Assembly: GCA_964351125.1 (NCBI GenBank)
Contig: CAYGMI010000007.1
Coordinates: forward strand, 1 to 25,158
Reading direction: 5' to 3'
Source: an uncultured Candidatus Saccharibacteria bacterium
GTDB lineage: Bacteria > Patescibacteriota > Dojkabacteria > J137 > JAEUSD01
Length of the DNA: 25,158 bases
Both the position numbers and the translations under genes were made by a program. The notes under the pieces are model-generated. The model saw only the letters and a program-made list of their open reading frames with translations. It had not been told where the DNA came from and did not search any database. Below are positions 4,244-12,384 of this stretch, one piece after another (the stretch's first letter is position 1; each line of letters begins with the position of its first letter).

Positions 4244-4897
4244 TTAGCTAAAAGGTTCAAGGATCTTTACTTTATTCTCGACCAAATTCATCAGCTTTTT
4301 TGCGTCCTCAATACTACCTACTATCCCTGCGTCGTGATGCATCGGAATTACTATTTCTGGATTCAGTACCTTAACAGCTTCTGCTGCCTCTTTAGAATCC
4401 ATTACATAAGTGCCCGATACAGGTACCATAGCAACATCAATCTTCTCTTTTATTTCTTGATACTCAGGAATATTGTCGGAGTCACCTAAATGAAAAATCG
4501 TCACCCCTTCTACCTCGATTATGAAACCTAGCCAATTATTCTGTTTTGGATGATGTGGTTTATCAATATTGTAGGCTGGCACAGTTTTGAACTTTATTGC
4601 GATCTCTTGCCCTTCATAACCAGGCATAAACCCTAGAATTCTATCGTCGATACCATTTTCTTGTAGTTGATCTTTAACGTCCATAGAACAGATTACCTTA
4701 GTACCATCTGTCATTATCCGGCCAAGGCTTTCTTTATCTAGATGATCATAGTGAGTATGAGTGATAAAGATTAGATCAGCAGTTGGTTGGTTCTGCGGCA
4801 GCTTGAATGGATCTATATAGATAGTCGCGAAAGTAGAATTTATTCTAAATCCCGACTGAAGGTATTTTGTGATGGTGAGATTTTTATATGTGAACAT
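4244..4897 (-). CDS. MBL-fold metallo-hydrolase (UPF0173/Lactamase_B_3-like)
   Basis: 217 aa; IYIDPF, ITHTHYDHLD (HxHxDH), FHLGDS, IPMH motifs. Confidence 0.9.
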   Translation of the reverse strand: MFTYKNLTITKYLQSGFRINSTFATIYIDPFKLPQNQPTADLIFITHTHYDHLDKESLGRIMTDGTKVICSMDVKDQLQENGIDDRILGFMPGYEGQEIAIKFKTVPAYNIDKPHHPKQNNWLGFIIEVEGVTIFHLGDSDNIPEYQEIKEKIDVAMVPVSGTYVMDSKEAAEAVKVLNPEIVIPMHHDAGIVGSIEDAKKLMNLVENKVKILEPFS

Positions 4898-4914: not shown

Positions 4915-5922
4915 CTAGAAAATTCCCAAAGAATAAATCCACAATGCAGTAAGCGCTGCTACCGCTGAAGTTAACCAAAATCTCTGCACTACTTTCGCCT
5001 CAGACCAGCCAATGGCTTCGAAGTGATGATGTATTGGAGCAATCCTGAATATCTTTTTCTTCAAGAACTTGATCGAAAGTATCTGACTTGCGCTCGAGAA
5101 TAATTCCACCCAGAACACAAGACCTAGTATTGCAAAAGGCAATACTGTGTCGGTGACTAGGGCAAACAAAATCAACGCAAATGCGATCGGAAGCGTACCG
5201 GTACCTCCCATAAATACACGCGCTGGATTAATATTGAAGTACAAGTATACAAACGAACTACCCAACATCAAACCCAGATATGGCCATAGGTCAGTTCTAC
5301 CAGTAAGTCCGGCAAATCCAATATAAGCAATAATTGCAATTATAAATTGACCAGTGACCAACCCATCTGCTCCATCTGTTATCTCGATACCATACATTGC
5401 CAAAACCATCGCAAATGCTCCTAGAACCAATATTGGAAGAGTCATATATACAGTTATCCCCAAGATTGTAATTTGAGTTATTCCTATCGACTCTACAACT
5501 ACCAATAAGAAGAAACAGATTAGATATAGAACTAATAATTTTCCGATCCTCCAGGCAAAACTCTCTTGGAATAGTCTAAATCTTTCATCTACTTTTCTGG
5601 CAAATACTAACGATCCTTCAATGAATCCATATAGGGTGGTTAGAATCCAACCAGCAATAAAAAGTGACTTAAGTGGAGATGCAGGTATTAAAAGTAGCGC
5701 CCATACTAGTACGCTAATTGAAATCATTAGTCCACCCATCGTCGGCGTTCCTGATTTATGAGCATGAATCTTAATGAATTCAGCATTCATATTATTGCCC
5801 ATCAGGACATGCCGCACCACAATATTTGCTCTGTATAGTAAGAAGATTAGTACTGGTGCAATAATTGCCGTGGATGTAAATCCCACAATTGCAAAGTTCG
5901 TAAAGTCAGTTAGATTTCCCAT
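4915..5922 (-). CDS. mraY: MraY-family (GT4, phospho-N-acetylmuramoyl-pentapeptide transferase) homolog with substituted catalytic aspartates
   Basis: 335-aa multi-TM protein; HKSGTPTMGG, TDGADGL, YFNINPARVFMG, IFRIAPIHHHFEAIGWSEAKVVQRFW are MraY signatures. The canonical DD reads EG (E102/G103) and MGD reads MGG (G240), so family is secure but activity is not. Confidence 0.85.
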   Translation of the reverse strand: MGNLTDFTNFAIVGFTSTAIIAPVLIFLLYRANIVVRHVLMGNNMNAEFIKIHAHKSGTPTMGGLMISISVLVWALLLIPASPLKSLFIAGWILTTLYGFIEGSLVFARKVDERFRLFQESFAWRIGKLLVLYLICFFLLVVVESIGITQITILGITVYMTLPILVLGAFAMVLAMYGIEITDGADGLVTGQFIIAIIAYIGFAGLTGRTDLWPYLGLMLGSSFVYLYFNINPARVFMGGTGTLPIAFALILFALVTDTVLPFAILGLVFWVELFSSASQILSIKFLKKKIFRIAPIHHHFEAIGWSEAKVVQRFWLTSAVAALTALWIYSLGIF

Positions 5923-6103
5923 AAAATTGTTTTCCTAAATTCAGACCACTATAACTCATTAAATCTACGAAGTGAATCGGATTTGAATGAGCTATATCAC
6001 AGTTTTTTAGTTTTGTGCGATATGATTTATTCGAACTTGCTGCTACACTATACTGCCCTCTATTTAGTCGGGCTGAAGCAGTTTAATTATTAATTTCTTT
6101 CTC

Positions 6104-6514
6104 ATGCAGAAGAAAATTTATATTGGTGGCTTGCCATGGGAACTTGACCGTATTGGTCTTCTCAATTACTTCAAGGCAGTTCTTGAAGGGGCTAACATCG
6201 AAGCTGGATACGAGCTTCCATTTGTATCAGAACCTGTCCAACATCCAAACGCTACCCTTAACGTGGTAGATACTTTTGTTGCGATGGACAAAGAATCTGG
6301 AAAATCCAGAGGATTTGGTTTCATCACAATGGACTTTGTAGACGACTCAGAAGCTGAGGCGTTGTTCGCCAAGATCGTAGATCTGATGAACGAACGTGTA
6401 GTTATCGGTATCCGAGGTCCAAGAGATCTTATTGTAAATGAAGCTACTCCAAAAGAGGAAGACACAGATACAATGGACAACAATAATGATACAGACACAG
6501 ACGAAGTATTTTAA
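6104..6514 (+). CDS. RNA-binding protein, RRM/RNP-1 domain with an insertion and acidic tail
   Basis: RNP2 KIYIGGLPW; DKESGKSRGFGFI (RNP1); LIVNEA C-terminal motif. Confidence 0.9.
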   Translation: MQKKIYIGGLPWELDRIGLLNYFKAVLEGANIEAGYELPFVSEPVQHPNATLNVVDTFVAMDKESGKSRGFGFITMDFVDDSEAEALFAKIVDLMNERVVIGIRGPRDLIVNEATPKEEDTDTMDNNNDTDTDEVF

Positions 6515-7505: not shown

Positions 7506-8183
7506 ATGTCATACATCCTAATCCTACTACTAACAATAGCTTTCCCCTTGTTTCGTTCATTCGAATCGAAACTGAAGTTCTATAAGAAGTGGCCAATTGT
7601 CATCGCAGCGGCAGTACTAGTTGGTATCCCCTTCTTGATTTGGGATATGATCTTTACAGGCTGGGGCGTTTGGGAGTTCTCTGCAGAGCATATCTTAGGA
7701 TTTAGAATAGTGGGGCTACCACTAGAAGAGATACTATTCTTTGTAGCCGCACCCTTTAGCTGTATTTTTATTTGGGAGTCAGTTAAGTATTTCGTCAAGA
7801 ATAAACGCCTAGGATTTGTACAATTCGTTTGGATTCCCGCAATGCTCTTACTCTATATTGCTGCTACTAACTCAGGACTGCTATATACCTTTACAGTTTT
7901 CTCAATTACTAGCTTATTTCTATTTGTGATGAATGTGCTGAACGAAGAGGTTATAGACTCAAATAGATTTTTGATTACCATGGGATTCTGTTTTATAGGG
8001 TTTGTAGCAATCAACTATTTGCTTACATCTATCCCTGTTGTTAGCTATGATAATTTAGAAAACCTTCAGATTAGAGTTTTTACAATTCCAATTGAAGATT
8101 TCGTATACAACTTTCTGCTTGTTGCAGCCAATATTGTCGTATATGAACATATTCTCAAATACTTAAACAATAAAAACAAATGA
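7506..8183 (+). CDS. Lycopene cyclase, fused CrtYc/CrtYd-type (two lycopene-cyclase domains)
   Basis: Integral membrane protein with IWDMIFTGWGVWEF..GLPLEEILFF in domain 1 and ENLQIRVFTIPIEDFVY in domain 2 (PxE[E/D] motifs); adjacent to crt genes. Confidence 0.88.
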   Translation: MSYILILLLTIAFPLFRSFESKLKFYKKWPIVIAAAVLVGIPFLIWDMIFTGWGVWEFSAEHILGFRIVGLPLEEILFFVAAPFSCIFIWESVKYFVKNKRLGFVQFVWIPAMLLLYIAATNSGLLYTFTVFSITSLFLFVMNVLNEEVIDSNRFLITMGFCFIGFVAINYLLTSIPVVSYDNLENLQIRVFTIPIEDFVYNFLLVAANIVVYEHILKYLNNKNK

Positions 8184-9307
8184 ACATTCAAGAGTTTATT
8201 CAGCTACTCGTACTAGGTTCTATTGCCCTAAGTTTACTGCCCCTATCAGTAGCAACAATTAACTTACTAACTGCTAGACGAGTTACTAAACGCAAATTCG
8301 AAGGAGATGCAAAGCTTGCTGTGTTAATCCCCGCAAGGAACGAAGAAGGTAACATTGGAAACATTCTCTCCGATCTAGTGGGACAGACATACACTAAATT
8401 CTCGGTATTCGTACTAGATGATCATTCCGATGATGCCACAGCTGAGGTCGCATCTAAATACAAACCACAACTCTTACAATTAGAGGTTATAGAGGGTAAG
8501 GGGCTTCCATCTGGATGGCTAGGAAAGCCCTGGGCATGTCAGCAATTAGCAGAAGCGGCAGCAGATTTTGACCAGCTCTTGTTTATCGACGCGGACGTGA
8601 GGTTAGAAAAAAATGCCGTAGAATCTGCTTTAGAACTGTATAGGGAATCTAATGCCGACCTACTGTCATGCTTTCCTACTCAACTCACAGAAACTGTTGG
8701 TGAAGCCTTCTTCGTAACCATGGTGAATTGGGTGCTCCTCAGTATGCTACCACTTAGGTCGGTAGAGAGATATAAAATGCAGAGTTTGAGTGCTGCAAAC
8801 GGCCAGTTCATGTTATTCAATAGTGTTGCATACAAACAGATAGGACAGCACAATGCAGTTAAAAATCGTAACACCGAAGATCTTGAATTATCTATTTTAA
8901 TCCAAAAATATAAGAAAAAATTAGTAGTCTGTTTGGGTGCAAATTCAATTTACTGCAGAATGTACAAATCTGCAGAACAAGCTCTCAATGGGATTAGCAG
9001 AAGTTATTACATCGGTTTTGGCGCCAAAGGCCCAGGTTTCTTGATGTCTCATATGTTGATTGTCTATGCGTACGTTATGCCTTTACTTTTCTTAAGTACC
9101 TCTCCCCTTTGTTTTATTCCAATAGCACTCACGCTTGCTACTCGCACAATCGTTGCTCTGCAGTCTAATAGAAATATATTGTTCGACTTAAGCATTCACC
9201 TAGCACAAATGTTTGGGACCTTAGGACTCGCAACACACTCATATTATATGTTTAGAACTAACTCCGTCACATGGAAGGGAAGAAATATAAATATCTCAGC
9301 TCACTAG
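8180..9307 (+). CDS. Glycosyltransferase family 2, CruC/CrtQ-like carotenoid glycosyltransferase
   Basis: N-terminal TM; IPARNEE, LDDHSDD, GWLGKPWACQQL, FIDADV, ANGQFMLF, TED, CRMY; lies between the cyclase and the hydratase. 4-nt ATGA overlap with the cyclase gene. Confidence 0.85.
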   Translation: MNIQEFIQLLVLGSIALSLLPLSVATINLLTARRVTKRKFEGDAKLAVLIPARNEEGNIGNILSDLVGQTYTKFSVFVLDDHSDDATAEVASKYKPQLLQLEVIEGKGLPSGWLGKPWACQQLAEAAADFDQLLFIDADVRLEKNAVESALELYRESNADLLSCFPTQLTETVGEAFFVTMVNWVLLSMLPLRSVERYKMQSLSAANGQFMLFNSVAYKQIGQHNAVKNRNTEDLELSILIQKYKKKLVVCLGANSIYCRMYKSAEQALNGISRSYYIGFGAKGPGFLMSHMLIVYAYVMPLLFLSTSPLCFIPIALTLATRTIVALQSNRNILFDLSIHLAQMFGTLGLATHSYYMFRTNSVTWKGRNINISAH

Positions 9308-9912
9308 TTGTAGTTTTCTACTTGGTTGGAATAGCCGGACACCTTATAGGTACTTCTAGGGTTTTGTTTTTGCAGCTTACACCTTTTATTTTAGTCTTAA
9401 CGTCCATACTAGTGGTTGGCGACTTCATACTGTCTCAAAAACCCAAGCTCAGAACAAAGATTGCACTTTGGCTGGCTGTAGTGGTACTCACAACTTTTGT
9501 ACTAGAGGCATTTGGTACAAATACTGGAAGCTTATTTGGTCAGTACAATTATGGACCAACTCTTGGGGTTAAGTATTTGGATACCCCCTTAATTATTGGA
9601 GCTAACTGGATAATTATTATTCTTGGTAGCTATAGCTTTCTAAAGTACCTTGCAGTCACTAAGAACTTAGCTTTCTTGAGCGCAGTGACAGCAGTTTGCG
9701 TTGATGTATTTTTAGAGATCACAGCTGTAAAACTAGACTATTGGAGTTGGAGCAACAACCAAGTACCTGCTCAAAACTACATCGTATGGTTCTTGATAGT
9801 TTTTATTGCTGTATACTTTCTGGAGAAACTAAATCCCAAGACTGCAAAACTACTAGTACCGATATTTATAATGCAATCACTGTTTATAGTATCACTTGCT
9901 TTGCTGCTATAG
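9271..9912 (+). CDS. cruF: Carotenoid 1,2-hydratase, CruF/DUF422 family
   Basis: Multi-TM; LEAFGTNTGSLFGQYNYG..LG..TPLIIGANW, VDVFLE..AV.LDYWSW, VPAQNYIVWF match the family pattern. Start overlaps the GT2 end by 37 nt. Confidence 0.85.
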   Translation: MEGKKYKYLSSLVVVFYLVGIAGHLIGTSRVLFLQLTPFILVLTSILVVGDFILSQKPKLRTKIALWLAVVVLTTFVLEAFGTNTGSLFGQYNYGPTLGVKYLDTPLIIGANWIIIILGSYSFLKYLAVTKNLAFLSAVTAVCVDVFLEITAVKLDYWSWSNNQVPAQNYIVWFLIVFIAVYFLEKLNPKTAKLLVPIFIMQSLFIVSLALLL

Positions 9913-9914
9913 AT

Positions 9915-10940
9915 TTAGGACTCTATTGCTTCGGGAGCTCTGAGGTAAGGCATCATTAACTTCGGGACTCTATCCATCCTCATACCGTAAAAAAATACTG
10001 TGGTAAAGGCAGAAAGTAATGCAATAGTCTTGTCTACTTTAGCCGGCTTTAGTTTTCCTTCCAACACGATGAAGGGGTCGTCTAATATCTGCTCGCAAAC
10101 TCTTTGGTACATTACTGTTGCTGCTACTACTGGAACCGCCACGCCTGGACTAAAACTAACGAGTTCATTAAGTGTCTGCATTCCTTCTTGATTCCAATAC
10201 TGATACCTATTGACCTGCTTACGGATAAACTCAGCAAATAGATCTTGATTGTCTTCACTCTGACAATAAAGGGCAAAGTTATATGCGTTCATTATTGGGA
10301 ACTCTGCTCTATTAACTGCTTCTATGAACCCAGGATCGTAATCCTCTAGAGGAAAATAGTTCCTGCCTAGATTACTGTCCTCTTCTATATCTCGAATAAA
10401 GTTTATGTACTGAAATGCAAATCCAAGCTGATGTGCAGCGTAATAAGAGGCCTCGTCATCTTTCGGAAACCCAAAGATCCTTGCACACATGTATCCAATC
10501 ACACCTGCCGCTCCATGGATGTAAGACTCAATTTCTTGAATACTCTCATATCGCGCATCTCCTAGATCCATCTCCATCGAGATAAAAAAGTCTTCTACCC
10601 AGGCCCTTTCGAAGTCATATTCGTTAAAAATACCGATAAAATCATCCAGAACAGGTATTCCTGTTCTTTCACCGGAATCTAGTGCATGCCAAAATCGTGC
10701 CTTAAACTCAAGGTACTTTTGCTTATTTAACTCCAAGTCTTCTTCTGCGTCTACAAAATCATCGGCAACTCTCACAAATGCATAGAATACCTTTATTTTC
10801 TCGCCTACTATAGAAGGAAATCTCTCTGTGGCACTACTAAAGGTGTTACTTCTCTCTCCCATTACTTGCGTAGGAGTTACACCAACCAGATCTGAAAGCA
10901 GATCCGACTGAAGATTTATTGTTTCGCTATTTGTAATCAT
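9915..10940 (-). CDS. crtB: Phytoene synthase (phytoene/squalene synthase family)
   Basis: FYAFVRVADDFVD (DDxxD) and QYINFIRDIEED..LGRNYFP motifs, SMEMDL, YIHGAAGVIG; downstream of and overlapping crtI by 14 nt. Confidence 0.9.
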   Translation of the reverse strand: MITNSETINLQSDLLSDLVGVTPTQVMGERSNTFSSATERFPSIVGEKIKVFYAFVRVADDFVDAEEDLELNKQKYLEFKARFWHALDSGERTGIPVLDDFIGIFNEYDFERAWVEDFFISMEMDLGDARYESIQEIESYIHGAAGVIGYMCARIFGFPKDDEASYYAAHQLGFAFQYINFIRDIEEDSNLGRNYFPLEDYDPGFIEAVNRAEFPIMNAYNFALYCQSEDNQDLFAEFIRKQVNRYQYWNQEGMQTLNELVSFSPGVAVPVVAATVMYQRVCEQILDDPFIVLEGKLKPAKVDKTIALLSAFTTVFFYGMRMDRVPKLMMPYLRAPEAIES

Positions 10941-12384
10941 TTTGGATTTCTTTTGCTACAACTTCTCCAGAAATTATCGTCATTGGAAGACTTACTCCTG
11001 GCACCGTATACTGTCCAACATAGTACAGACCTTTTAGTTTCTTACTCTTGTGACTTGGACGGAATACAGCTGTCTGGAATAATGTATGTGCTAAGCCAAA
11101 TGCTCCACCTTTATAGGAATTATAGTCTCTTTCAAAGTCGGTAAGAGCATAGCTGCGTTTGAGGATAACATGATCTCTTATAGATTGAGATGTTATGTAC
11201 TCTAAGTCATCCATTATATCATTATAATATTCCTCTCTGATATTTTCTGTATCTTCAAGCCCTGCAGCGATGGGTACAAGTATATATAAATTCTCCATTC
11301 CTTTAGGAGCAACGTCTTCGTCAGTTTTAGAAGTCATACTCACATAGTACAAAGGCTTATCTGGCCACTTTGGATCTTTAAAAATATCATCAAAGTGTGT
11401 ATCCCAATTTCTATGGAGGAAAAGTGTATGATGCTCAAAATTGTCTAGTTTCTTATCTATTCCCAGAAAGAACAAAAGTGTAGAAGGCGACAGTACTTTC
11501 TTATCCCAGGACTGAGCAGTGTAGTCAGGACTGTCTAATAGATGCTGATCGACATATTGATAATCAGCGTTAGCTACCACAATATCTGCTTCGTATTTCT
11601 GCTTAGATACCTCTACGATTTTCTGCCCCGCATCGGTTTCGTATATTCTCGTTACTGGGGAATTGTAAATAAATTCAACCCCTAGTTCTTCTGCGAGCTT
11701 TACCAAACCTTCAACTGCTGCGTACATACCTCCTTTGGGATACCAAATTCCCAATCCAAAATCCGCATGCGAGATTAAAGAGTAAAGTGCCAAAACGTTC
11801 TGAGGTGAACCACCCAAGAATACCACCATAAACTCTACAATCTTCTGTAGTCTTGAATCTTTAAAGTAGCTCGCTACATGATTATGGAAAGTACTAAACA
11901 CATTTAGCTTTAGACCATTCCACAATAGCTTTGGGTTTACAAAATCGACAATCGAGTTATAGACCCTATAGATGTATTCGTGGGAAAGCTCGTACTTGGT
12001 TTCTGCCTTCTTTAGATATTGCTTCAACTTTTGTCCAGCGCCTGGCTCAATAGACTCAAATAGGTCTATATTCTTTTCCAGATCGGCACTAACATCGTAG
12101 AACTCATCTTTATTGAAATAGACACGGTAAGAAGGATCAAGCCTCTCTAACTCTATGTATTCGCTCATTTCTTTCCCAATAGATGCAAAGAACCGCTCGA
12201 ACACATCTGGCATCATAAACCAAGAAGGCCCAATATCGAATGTGAATCCATCTTTCTTCCACTGTGCTGCCCTTCCTCCTGCTTCAGCATTCTTCTCTAT
12301 CAACTGGACTTCATACCCTGCATAAGCAAGCTGAATTGCCACCGACAAACCACCGAATCCTGCGCCAATAACAATAACTTTCAT
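10927..12384 (-). CDS. crtI: Phytoene desaturase (CrtI family)
   Basis: VIVIGAGFGGLS FAD-binding motif, FTFDIGPSWFMMPDVFERFF, FLGGSP, WYPKGGM, FEHHTLF, YKGGAFGLAHTLFQTAVFRP, YYVGQYTVPGVSLP. Confidence 0.92.
   Translation of the reverse strand: MKVIVIGAGFGGLSVAIQLAYAGYEVQLIEKNAEAGGRAAQWKKDGFTFDIGPSWFMMPDVFERFFASIGKEMSEYIELERLDPSYRVYFNKDEFYDVSADLEKNIDLFESIEPGAGQKLKQYLKKAETKYELSHEYIYRVYNSIVDFVNPKLLWNGLKLNVFSTFHNHVASYFKDSRLQKIVEFMVVFLGGSPQNVLALYSLISHADFGLGIWYPKGGMYAAVEGLVKLAEELGVEFIYNSPVTRIYETDAGQKIVEVSKQKYEADIVVANADYQYVDQHLLDSPDYTAQSWDKKVLSPSTLLFFLGIDKKLDNFEHHTLFLHRNWDTHFDDIFKDPKWPDKPLYYVSMTSKTDEDVAPKGMENLYILVPIAAGLEDTENIREEYYNDIMDDLEYITSQSIRDHVILKRSYALTDFERDYNSYKGGAFGLAHTLFQTAVFRPSHKSKKLKGLYYVGQYTVPGVSLPMTIISGEVVAKEIQNDYK

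Follow-up and report, generated by a model that had tools for sequence, protein, structure and literature searches.

Introduction

MraY is an essential antibiotic target, and the aspartates of its 'DDD' motif are treated as indispensable. In the Aquifex enzyme this motif consists of D117, D118 and D265, of which D118 and D265 were reported to be critical, and N190 and D265 both hold one amine of an inhibitor (PMC6606608). For human DPAGT1 a substrate-bound structure showed that the side chains of Asn185 and Asp252 complete the octahedral coordination of Mg2+ (PMC6218659). Mutants of D115 and D116 in DPAGT1 kept at least 10% of the activity, and both residues have structural roles, D116 capping TMH8 and stabilising the region of Asp252 (PMC6218659). 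The exchange D252N made DPAGT1 5-fold more active, and N185D alone left 0.7% of the activity (PMC6218659), so that replacing this Asn by an acidic residue is no trivial change. N190 and D193 of MraY have been assigned to the N185 and D252 contacts of DPAGT1 (PMC13184980). Here we describe a homolog of MraY from Dojkabacteria that carries a Glu at the position of N190 and a Gly at the position of D265.

Results and Discussion

An MraY homolog with an altered DDD motif

The window, i.e., the whole stretch of 25,158 nucleotides that was analysed, belongs to a genome (G000) of 1.18 Mb in 91 contigs that is 96.6% complete. The gene under study and the codons discussed below are:

4915..5922, minus strand: MraY-family gene of the kind termed Type A below, a stop-free ORF of 335 aa plus stop (protein P0001)
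5740..5757, minus strand: codons K56...T61, equivalent to Aquifex K70...T75, in the K-x-G-T-P-T-M-G-G signature (signature model and alignment)
5614..5619, minus strand: codons E102-G103, equivalent to the DD pair, Aquifex D117-D118 (structure-chain alignments)
5383..5385, minus strand: codon E180, equivalent to Aquifex N190 and to DPAGT1 N185, a Mg2+ ligand in DPAGT1 (alignment and literature)
5365..5376, minus strand: codons D183-G-A-D186, equivalent to Aquifex D193...D196, uridine or uridine-adjacent pocket, kept (alignment)
5212..5235, minus strand: codons N230...F237, equivalent to Aquifex N255...F262, uracil-binding residues, kept (alignment)
5203..5205, minus strand: codon G240 (GGT), equivalent to Aquifex D265 and to DPAGT1 D252, a Mg2+ ligand in DPAGT1 (alignment)
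5023..5031, minus strand: codons H298-H300, equivalent to Aquifex H324-H326, HHH motif of loop E, kept (alignment)
5948..5976, minus strand: putative sigma-70-like promoter, by match to the consensus only (9 of 12 positions, no better than in shuffles), 26 nt upstream of the start codon

The translation contains the motifs G-F-I-E102-G103-S, G-I-E180-I-T-D183-G-A-D186-G and F237-M-G239-G240-T-G, and in addition H298-H299-H300 and G-T-P-T-M-G-G (58-64). Residues were mapped by alignment to the solved MraY chains 5jnq, 8tlu, 8g01, 9zno and 4j72 and are given in Aquifex numbering; among solved chains only MraY was matched by sequence, with 5jnq at 1e-29. Translation and alignments confirmed the motifs that had been read in an initial annotation of this DNA (GFIEGS, E180, FMGGTG with GGT at 5203-5205, HHH, TPTMGG). 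The view that all three catalytic aspartates are replaced is literally true, since E102, G103 and G240 stand in place of D117, D118 and D265, but the change of D117 to Glu is conservative and this position is Asp or Glu in every member of the clade.

Only the DD pair and the N190/D265 pair are changed. The pocket residues K70, T75, D193, G194, D196, N255, F262 and G264 of Aquifex MraY are all present as K56, T61, D183, G184, D186, N230, F237 and G239, and the only pocket residue that differs is N190, replaced by E180. In an alignment of 70 clade members most of these pocket residues are invariant or nearly so, with D183, G184, D186 and N230, as well as H298 and H299 of the HHH motif, being strictly invariant; position 180 is almost always E in this alignment, with D in rare cases.

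Family models place the protein in the superfamily: PF00953 (Glycos_transf_4) matched with 50.5 bits (3e-13, cut-off 27) and PF10555 (MraY_sig1) with 20.8 bits (cut-off 20.1). The best NCBIfam match, TIGR00445 (mraY), reached 148.6 bits and stayed under its cut-off of 192.05, a value that is attained in only 1 of 41 genomes of the class and that canonical forms also miss. An AlphaFold2 model calculated with 70 relatives in the alignment had a mean pLDDT of 96.1 and a pTM of 0.93, and its best Foldseek matches in the PDB were all MraY (TM 0.74-0.80), ahead of DPAGT1. The protein was closer to models and structures of MraY than to models of WecA and does not belong to the WecA/TagO type. Sequence, fold and, among relatives, the position in the operon place it in the MraY branch of the PNPT superfamily; because it lacks the DDD motif, it is a variant and not a standard member.

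A separate WecA-like gene lies at the end of contig C82 of the same genome (TIGR02380, 5.9e-11). The idea that this third paralog might stand in for MraY was rejected, as it occurs in most of the relatives' genomes searched, together with Type A or Type B alike.

Two kinds of MraY in Dojkabacteria

When 41 genomes of this class were searched in six frames, two kinds of MraY could be distinguished. Type A has about 330-360 aa; its DD pair reads [D/E]-x, its Asn site is E, and G/A takes the place of Asp265. Type B has about 379 aa, the canonical DD, N and D, and an extra insertion. Type A alone was found in 14 genomes, Type B alone in 23 and both in 4, all of one genus (g9); a further genome, G506, also carries both. 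In g9 both types are under purifying selection (low dN/dS), which, together with the coexistence in g9 and G506, may indicate non-redundant roles.

A maximum-likelihood tree with WecA-like paralogs as root showed Type A as monophyletic (SH-aLRT 99), with ordinary branch lengths and apart from Type B. In a 400-genome sample of the phylum it was present in 23 of the 25 genomes of the class and in 0 of 376 others; within the class about 67 of 151 genomes carry it, among them essentially all members of families f3 and f7. Type A is thus a Dojkabacteria-specific clade of MraY. One homolog of P0001 is named Candidatus Dojkabacteria, and its product name from the NCBI pipeline is 'hypothetical protein'. 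In the literature searched on MraY with Dojkabacteria, Patescibacteria or CPR we found no description of a variant of this kind.

Several further observations concern the genes that accompany the two types. A MurC-like ligase of ~495 aa, with about 160-245 bits on TIGR01082, adjoins Type B at a distance of 2-8 kb (for example G007:C17, G012:C8, G030:C2 and G022:C1:810-820 kb), and the MurC of most genomes with only Type A scores 238-487 bits on the same model. The two types may be accompanied by different versions of the precursor module. A third, short canonical MraY (317-326 aa; DD, N, D) directly follows murG on L080-L082 (G512, G502 and G519; family f7), and some f7 genomes of this short-form group have two MraY matches.

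The acidic residue at the Asn site covaries with loss of Asp265

Among the 99 closest homologs, position 180 is acidic in all (E, in a few D), and position 240 is G, A or S in 98 and E in one (P0025), while every canonical MraY in the homolog list has N plus D. The altered sites thus co-occur among relatives, as the initial annotation had proposed to check. An exhaustive HMMER search of 1.84 billion proteins yielded representatives with the same pairing, and across roughly 390 homologs an acidic residue in place of Asn goes along with the absence of a carboxylate in place of Asp265. In Type A the DD pair always begins with D or E, and its second residue is G, D, E, K, A, C or V. According to the tree, the Asn site became acidic 3 times independently, and the carboxylate of Asp265 was lost in 3 of 3 cases; with only 3 independent pairs (p = 0.25) significance is out of reach for this test.

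One of these gains lies in Microgenomates. The protein P0177 (Microgenomates/Amesbacteria) has a swap of N to D and D to N, which is shared by 86 of the 120 matches listed, itself included. A member of this clade, P0303, is encoded in a dcw operon (mraZ-rsmH-ftsL-ftsI-dagK-mraY-ftsW-murG-x-ftsA-ftsZ). On an Amesbacteria-type contig (L074:8001-9038) the motifs of the swap clade (P0177, P0269-P0387) read F-D-I-T-D-G and W-L-G-N-A-G, and the protein is annotated as an ordinary MraY.

In the representative library four proteins (P0195, P0234, P0239 and P0244) combine Glu in place of Asp265 with Gly, Ala or Arg in place of Asn190. Judging from these residues, the pair seems to have undergone coupled change in a second way as well.

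Considering the contacts known from DPAGT1 and Aquifex MraY, both covarying positions supply neighbouring ligands to a single metal site. We therefore favour the view that P0001 is probably an active translocase with a relocated Mg2+ carboxylate, a reading that is based on sequence patterns and on analogy with DPAGT1 both for catalysis and for binding of the metal by E180. The carboxylate would have moved from the start of TM8 (Asp265 to Gly, Ala or Ser) to the neighbouring position on TM5 (Asn190 to Glu, rarely Asp), so that the metal site would keep one acidic and one neutral ligand, with E180 as the putative acidic one. The first aspartate of the DD pair is retained as Asp or Glu. The second position varies, and it would have been freed of constraint because Asp265, which the second aspartate positions, is gone. 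The reaction would most likely still be the transfer of phospho-MurNAc-peptide from the uridine nucleotide to undecaprenyl phosphate, giving lipid I. The earlier suggestion that a new Glu takes the place of the lost Mg2+-ligand Asp is strongly backed by the covariation, its recurrence in Microgenomates and the shared Mg2+ coordination in DPAGT1.

Type A is the sole MraY of several relatives with genes for wall synthesis

MurG was found in 41 of 41 and SEDS proteins in 40 of 41 genomes of relatives, and MurA in 134 of 151 genomes of the class. These numbers do not support the statement in the initial annotation that the WS6 lineage is reported to lack peptidoglycan synthesis. The closed genomes G005 and G032, like the near-complete G036, contain no MraY homolog besides Type A. 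In seven genomes (G032, G040, G002, G004, G018, G026 and G027) Type A alone occurs together with MurA, MurC and 4-5 Mur ligases.

In several relatives the gene is part of the dcw operon or adjoins it. The closed genome G212 has the contiguous order ftsW-murG-murB-murA-mraZ-rsmH-ftsI-TypeA on one strand, with Type A as the last gene. In G036 the order is mraZ-rsmH-ftsI-TypeA, and ddl-murA-murB-murG-ftsW is found at a distance of a few kb on the same strand; in G032 ftsI is directly upstream of Type A, and in G506 murA-TypeA-mraZ share one strand, whereas murB, just upstream, is on the other. Type A and murA share a contig and are no more than 10 kb apart in at least 30 genomes. The statement that the gene lies outside any dcw cluster thus holds for the genome of the window but not for the Type A genes of several relatives.

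The locus in the window's genome and its missing Mur enzymes

In the window the MraY gene is accompanied by genes for an MBL-fold hydrolase and a DsbA-like protein and by a carotenoid cluster, with no dcw genes among its neighbours; mraZ-rsmH-ftsL-ftsI of this genome are found on another contig (C39). The genes around the MraY gene are:

4244..4897, minus strand: MBL-fold hydrolase gene, downstream, 17 nt after the MraY stop, same strand
6104-6514, plus strand: 136-aa ORF divergent from the MraY gene, with an RNP-1-like R-G-F-G-F-I motif and an acidic tail
7506-8183: lycopene cyclase domain protein, carotenoid cluster
8180-9307: GT2 glycosyltransferase, carotenoid cluster
9271-9912: carotenoid biosynthesis protein, carotenoid cluster
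9915-10940, minus strand: phytoene/squalene synthase, carotenoid cluster, with a 485-aa ORF adjacent

The hydrolase gene is possibly co-transcribed with the MraY gene. This pairing is not conserved in relatives, and the neighbourhood in G005 is different. The 136-aa ORF had no Pfam match at E <= 0.001. The apparent carotenoid cluster (7506-12384) is notable for a CPR genome of 1.2 Mb.

The genome of the window encodes MurF (290 bits, over the cut-off), a MurE-like ligase, a MurF-like ligase of 582 aa, Ddl, MurG, two SEDS proteins and four PBPs including FtsI (contigs C1, C8, C13, C23, C38, C39 and C61). MurA, MurB, MurC and MurD were not found with curated HMMs and with probes from the same family and the same class. 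The search for murA to murG that the initial annotation had proposed thus revealed a kernel of truth in its doubt about wall synthesis, as the first four enzymes were not found, but the MurE-like ligase, MurF and MurG were. Incompleteness alone does not explain this gap, since MurA, MurC and MurD were likewise not found in the closed genome G005; MurC and MurD were also not found in G017. As MurA to MurD were not found, the nucleotide substrate in the window's genome is probably salvaged or made by an unrecognised route.

A divergent Mur-ligase-like protein of 461-477 aa, of which only the first ~120 positions of Mur_ligase_M were matched, is encoded at G005:C1:609219, G006:C1:210043, G017:C2:591689, G018:C27:5596 and G036:C2:184514 (L066:8098-9531). 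G005, G006 and G017, which have only Type A, encode no other clear Mur ligase.

Could the substrate or the function have changed?

A match to MurA is absent from 17 of 151 genomes of the class, and 15 of these 17, including that of the window, carry Type A; as these relatives are non-independent and the smallest genomes tend to be those of Type A lineages, we report no more than an association. The pattern suggests a recurrent loss of early cytoplasmic steps, possibly with salvage of precursors. In view of this association and of the coexistence of both types, the donor substrate could be a changed or a salvaged one. Type A could be a neofunctionalised phosphoglycosyl transferase that keeps the uridine site and the lipid phosphate acceptor but uses a different donor, the altered metal site reflecting a changed chemistry. 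Candidate donors would be a salvaged or shortened UDP-MurNAc-peptide or another UDP-sugar; alternatively, the enzyme could work mainly in exchange or in the reverse direction. Besides the 15 MurA-less genomes, this proposal can draw on the additional lack of MurC and MurD in G000, G005 and G017, on the presence of essentially one divergent Mur ligase in G005, G006 and G017 and of two in G036, and on the occurrence of Type A next to Type B in g9 (both with low dN/dS) and G506. However, some genomes, for instance the closed G032, combine Type A as their single MraY with MurA, MurC, four Mur ligases, MurG and SEDS; Type A lies in or adjoins the dcw operon in G212, G036 and G506, and all residues that contact uridine as well as the HHH motif of loop E are unchanged. 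We consider a different donor rather unlikely. For the earlier idea that the reaction has changed we obtained no positive evidence, and the dcw context argues for synthesis of lipid I.

A related, speculative view is that the relocated-carboxylate site alters the donor tolerance or the ligand sensitivity of the Mg2+- and uridine-adjacent pocket; we regard this as a tentative proposal with a minor chance of being correct. If true, reduced epibiotic Dojkabacteria could use nucleotide or muropeptide precursors scavenged from the host after repeated loss of MurA-MurD, and altered donor tolerance or ligand sensitivity could explain why some genomes keep Type A plus a canonical MraY.

The absence of D118 and D265, which were reported to be critical in MraY, and the TIGR00445 score below the cut-off could also be expected for a pseudoenzyme, i.e., a catalytically dead protein that binds undecaprenyl phosphate or a nucleotide-sugar and acts as scaffold or regulator of wall synthesis. 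This was one of the alternatives raised in the initial annotation, and it appears very improbable to us. A carboxylate is always kept at the metal site by the covarying change, the uridine pocket is intact, and the independently swapped clade is the dcw-encoded MraY of Microgenomates. Moreover, closed genomes with MurG, SEDS and PBPs have no MraY other than Type A, in part within a dcw operon, and the source of lipid I would be missing in these bacteria if Type A were dead.

The gene is neither decaying nor misread

A search of 5.8 billion proteins returned ~100 close homologs with the features of P0001 (34-71% identity). Pairwise dN/dS between close relatives was 0.056-0.076 for Type A and 0.03-0.08 for the canonical Type B, the paralog in the same genomes; as dS was saturated (>1.4, and undefined for several pairs), we claim no more than a dN/dS far below 1. 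In public contigs, which came from two studies and may be the source sample, all four altered codons were covered at a depth of ~4-5x with zero differences, and 5776-5871 of the gene was uncovered. The closest homologs all belong to the same class and track its families, and an origin from a contaminating second organism was rejected.

Although codon 240 (GGT) is one transition from GAT and the depth of the public contigs is only about 4-5x, a decaying pseudogene or an error of sequencing or assembly at the catalytic codons has a negligible probability in view of the full-length ORF, the pLDDT of 96, the dN/dS far below 1, the independent contigs without differences and the same states in about 100 homologs from many samples, the last of which excludes a read error. 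The assessment of the gene as intact, conserved and not decaying was thus borne out, and two of the findings that the initial annotation had named as arguments against its reading, read-level errors at these codons and sporadic substitutions with a dN/dS near 1, were both not observed: the states are clade-wide, and dN/dS is about 0.06-0.08.

Implications

About half of the class Dojkabacteria has an MraY without two of the aspartates of the DDD motif, often as the sole copy and inside a dcw operon. Type A and the swap lineage of the CPR can be seen as a natural double-mutant experiment. They support the view derived from DPAGT1, here extended to MraY, that the metal site is formed by the Asn190/Asp265 pair, the DD pair having a structural role. 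If the carboxylate has indeed been relocated, E180 should be essential, G240D should be deleterious or neutral, and reciprocal swaps should be tolerated. The data also mark evolutionarily plastic pocket residues among those that are used by nucleoside inhibitors. The membrane steps of wall synthesis are kept without MurA-D in several lineages, which raises the issue of precursor salvage in episymbionts.

Comparison with known systems

Type B also occurs in Dojkabacteria, also scores below the TIGR00445 cut-off and has a distribution that is largely complementary to that of Type A. Its similarity to P0001 amounts to only 72-121 bits.

The swap clade of Microgenomates independently has the carboxylate at the TM5 position, lacks it at TM8 and is the resident dcw MraY. 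It differs from Type A in that the exchange is isosteric (N to D and D to N, versus N to E and D to G), in that the DD pair is kept, and in forming a separate clade on the tree.

With characterised MraY (EC 2.7.8.13; PDB 4J72, 5CKR, 5JNQ, 8G01) P0001 shares the fold at 23-26% identity, the K-x-G-T-P-T-M-G-G signature, the pocket of D193/D196 and N255/F262, the HHH loop and, in relatives, the dcw position. It differs by Gly at D118 and D265, by Glu at D117 and at N190, by a TIGR00445 score below the cut-off, and by the location of the gene outside the dcw cluster in the window's genome, where MurA-D were not found.

DPAGT1/GPT (human; PDB 6FWZ, 5O5E) is only 13-14% identical, has another sugar-recognition loop, donor and acceptor, and keeps Asn plus Asp. 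It nevertheless shares the superfamily fold (TM about 0.7), and its homologous Asn185 and Asp252 jointly bind the catalytic Mg2+ while the DD pair is structural, which provides a mechanistic precedent for the reading proposed here for Type A.
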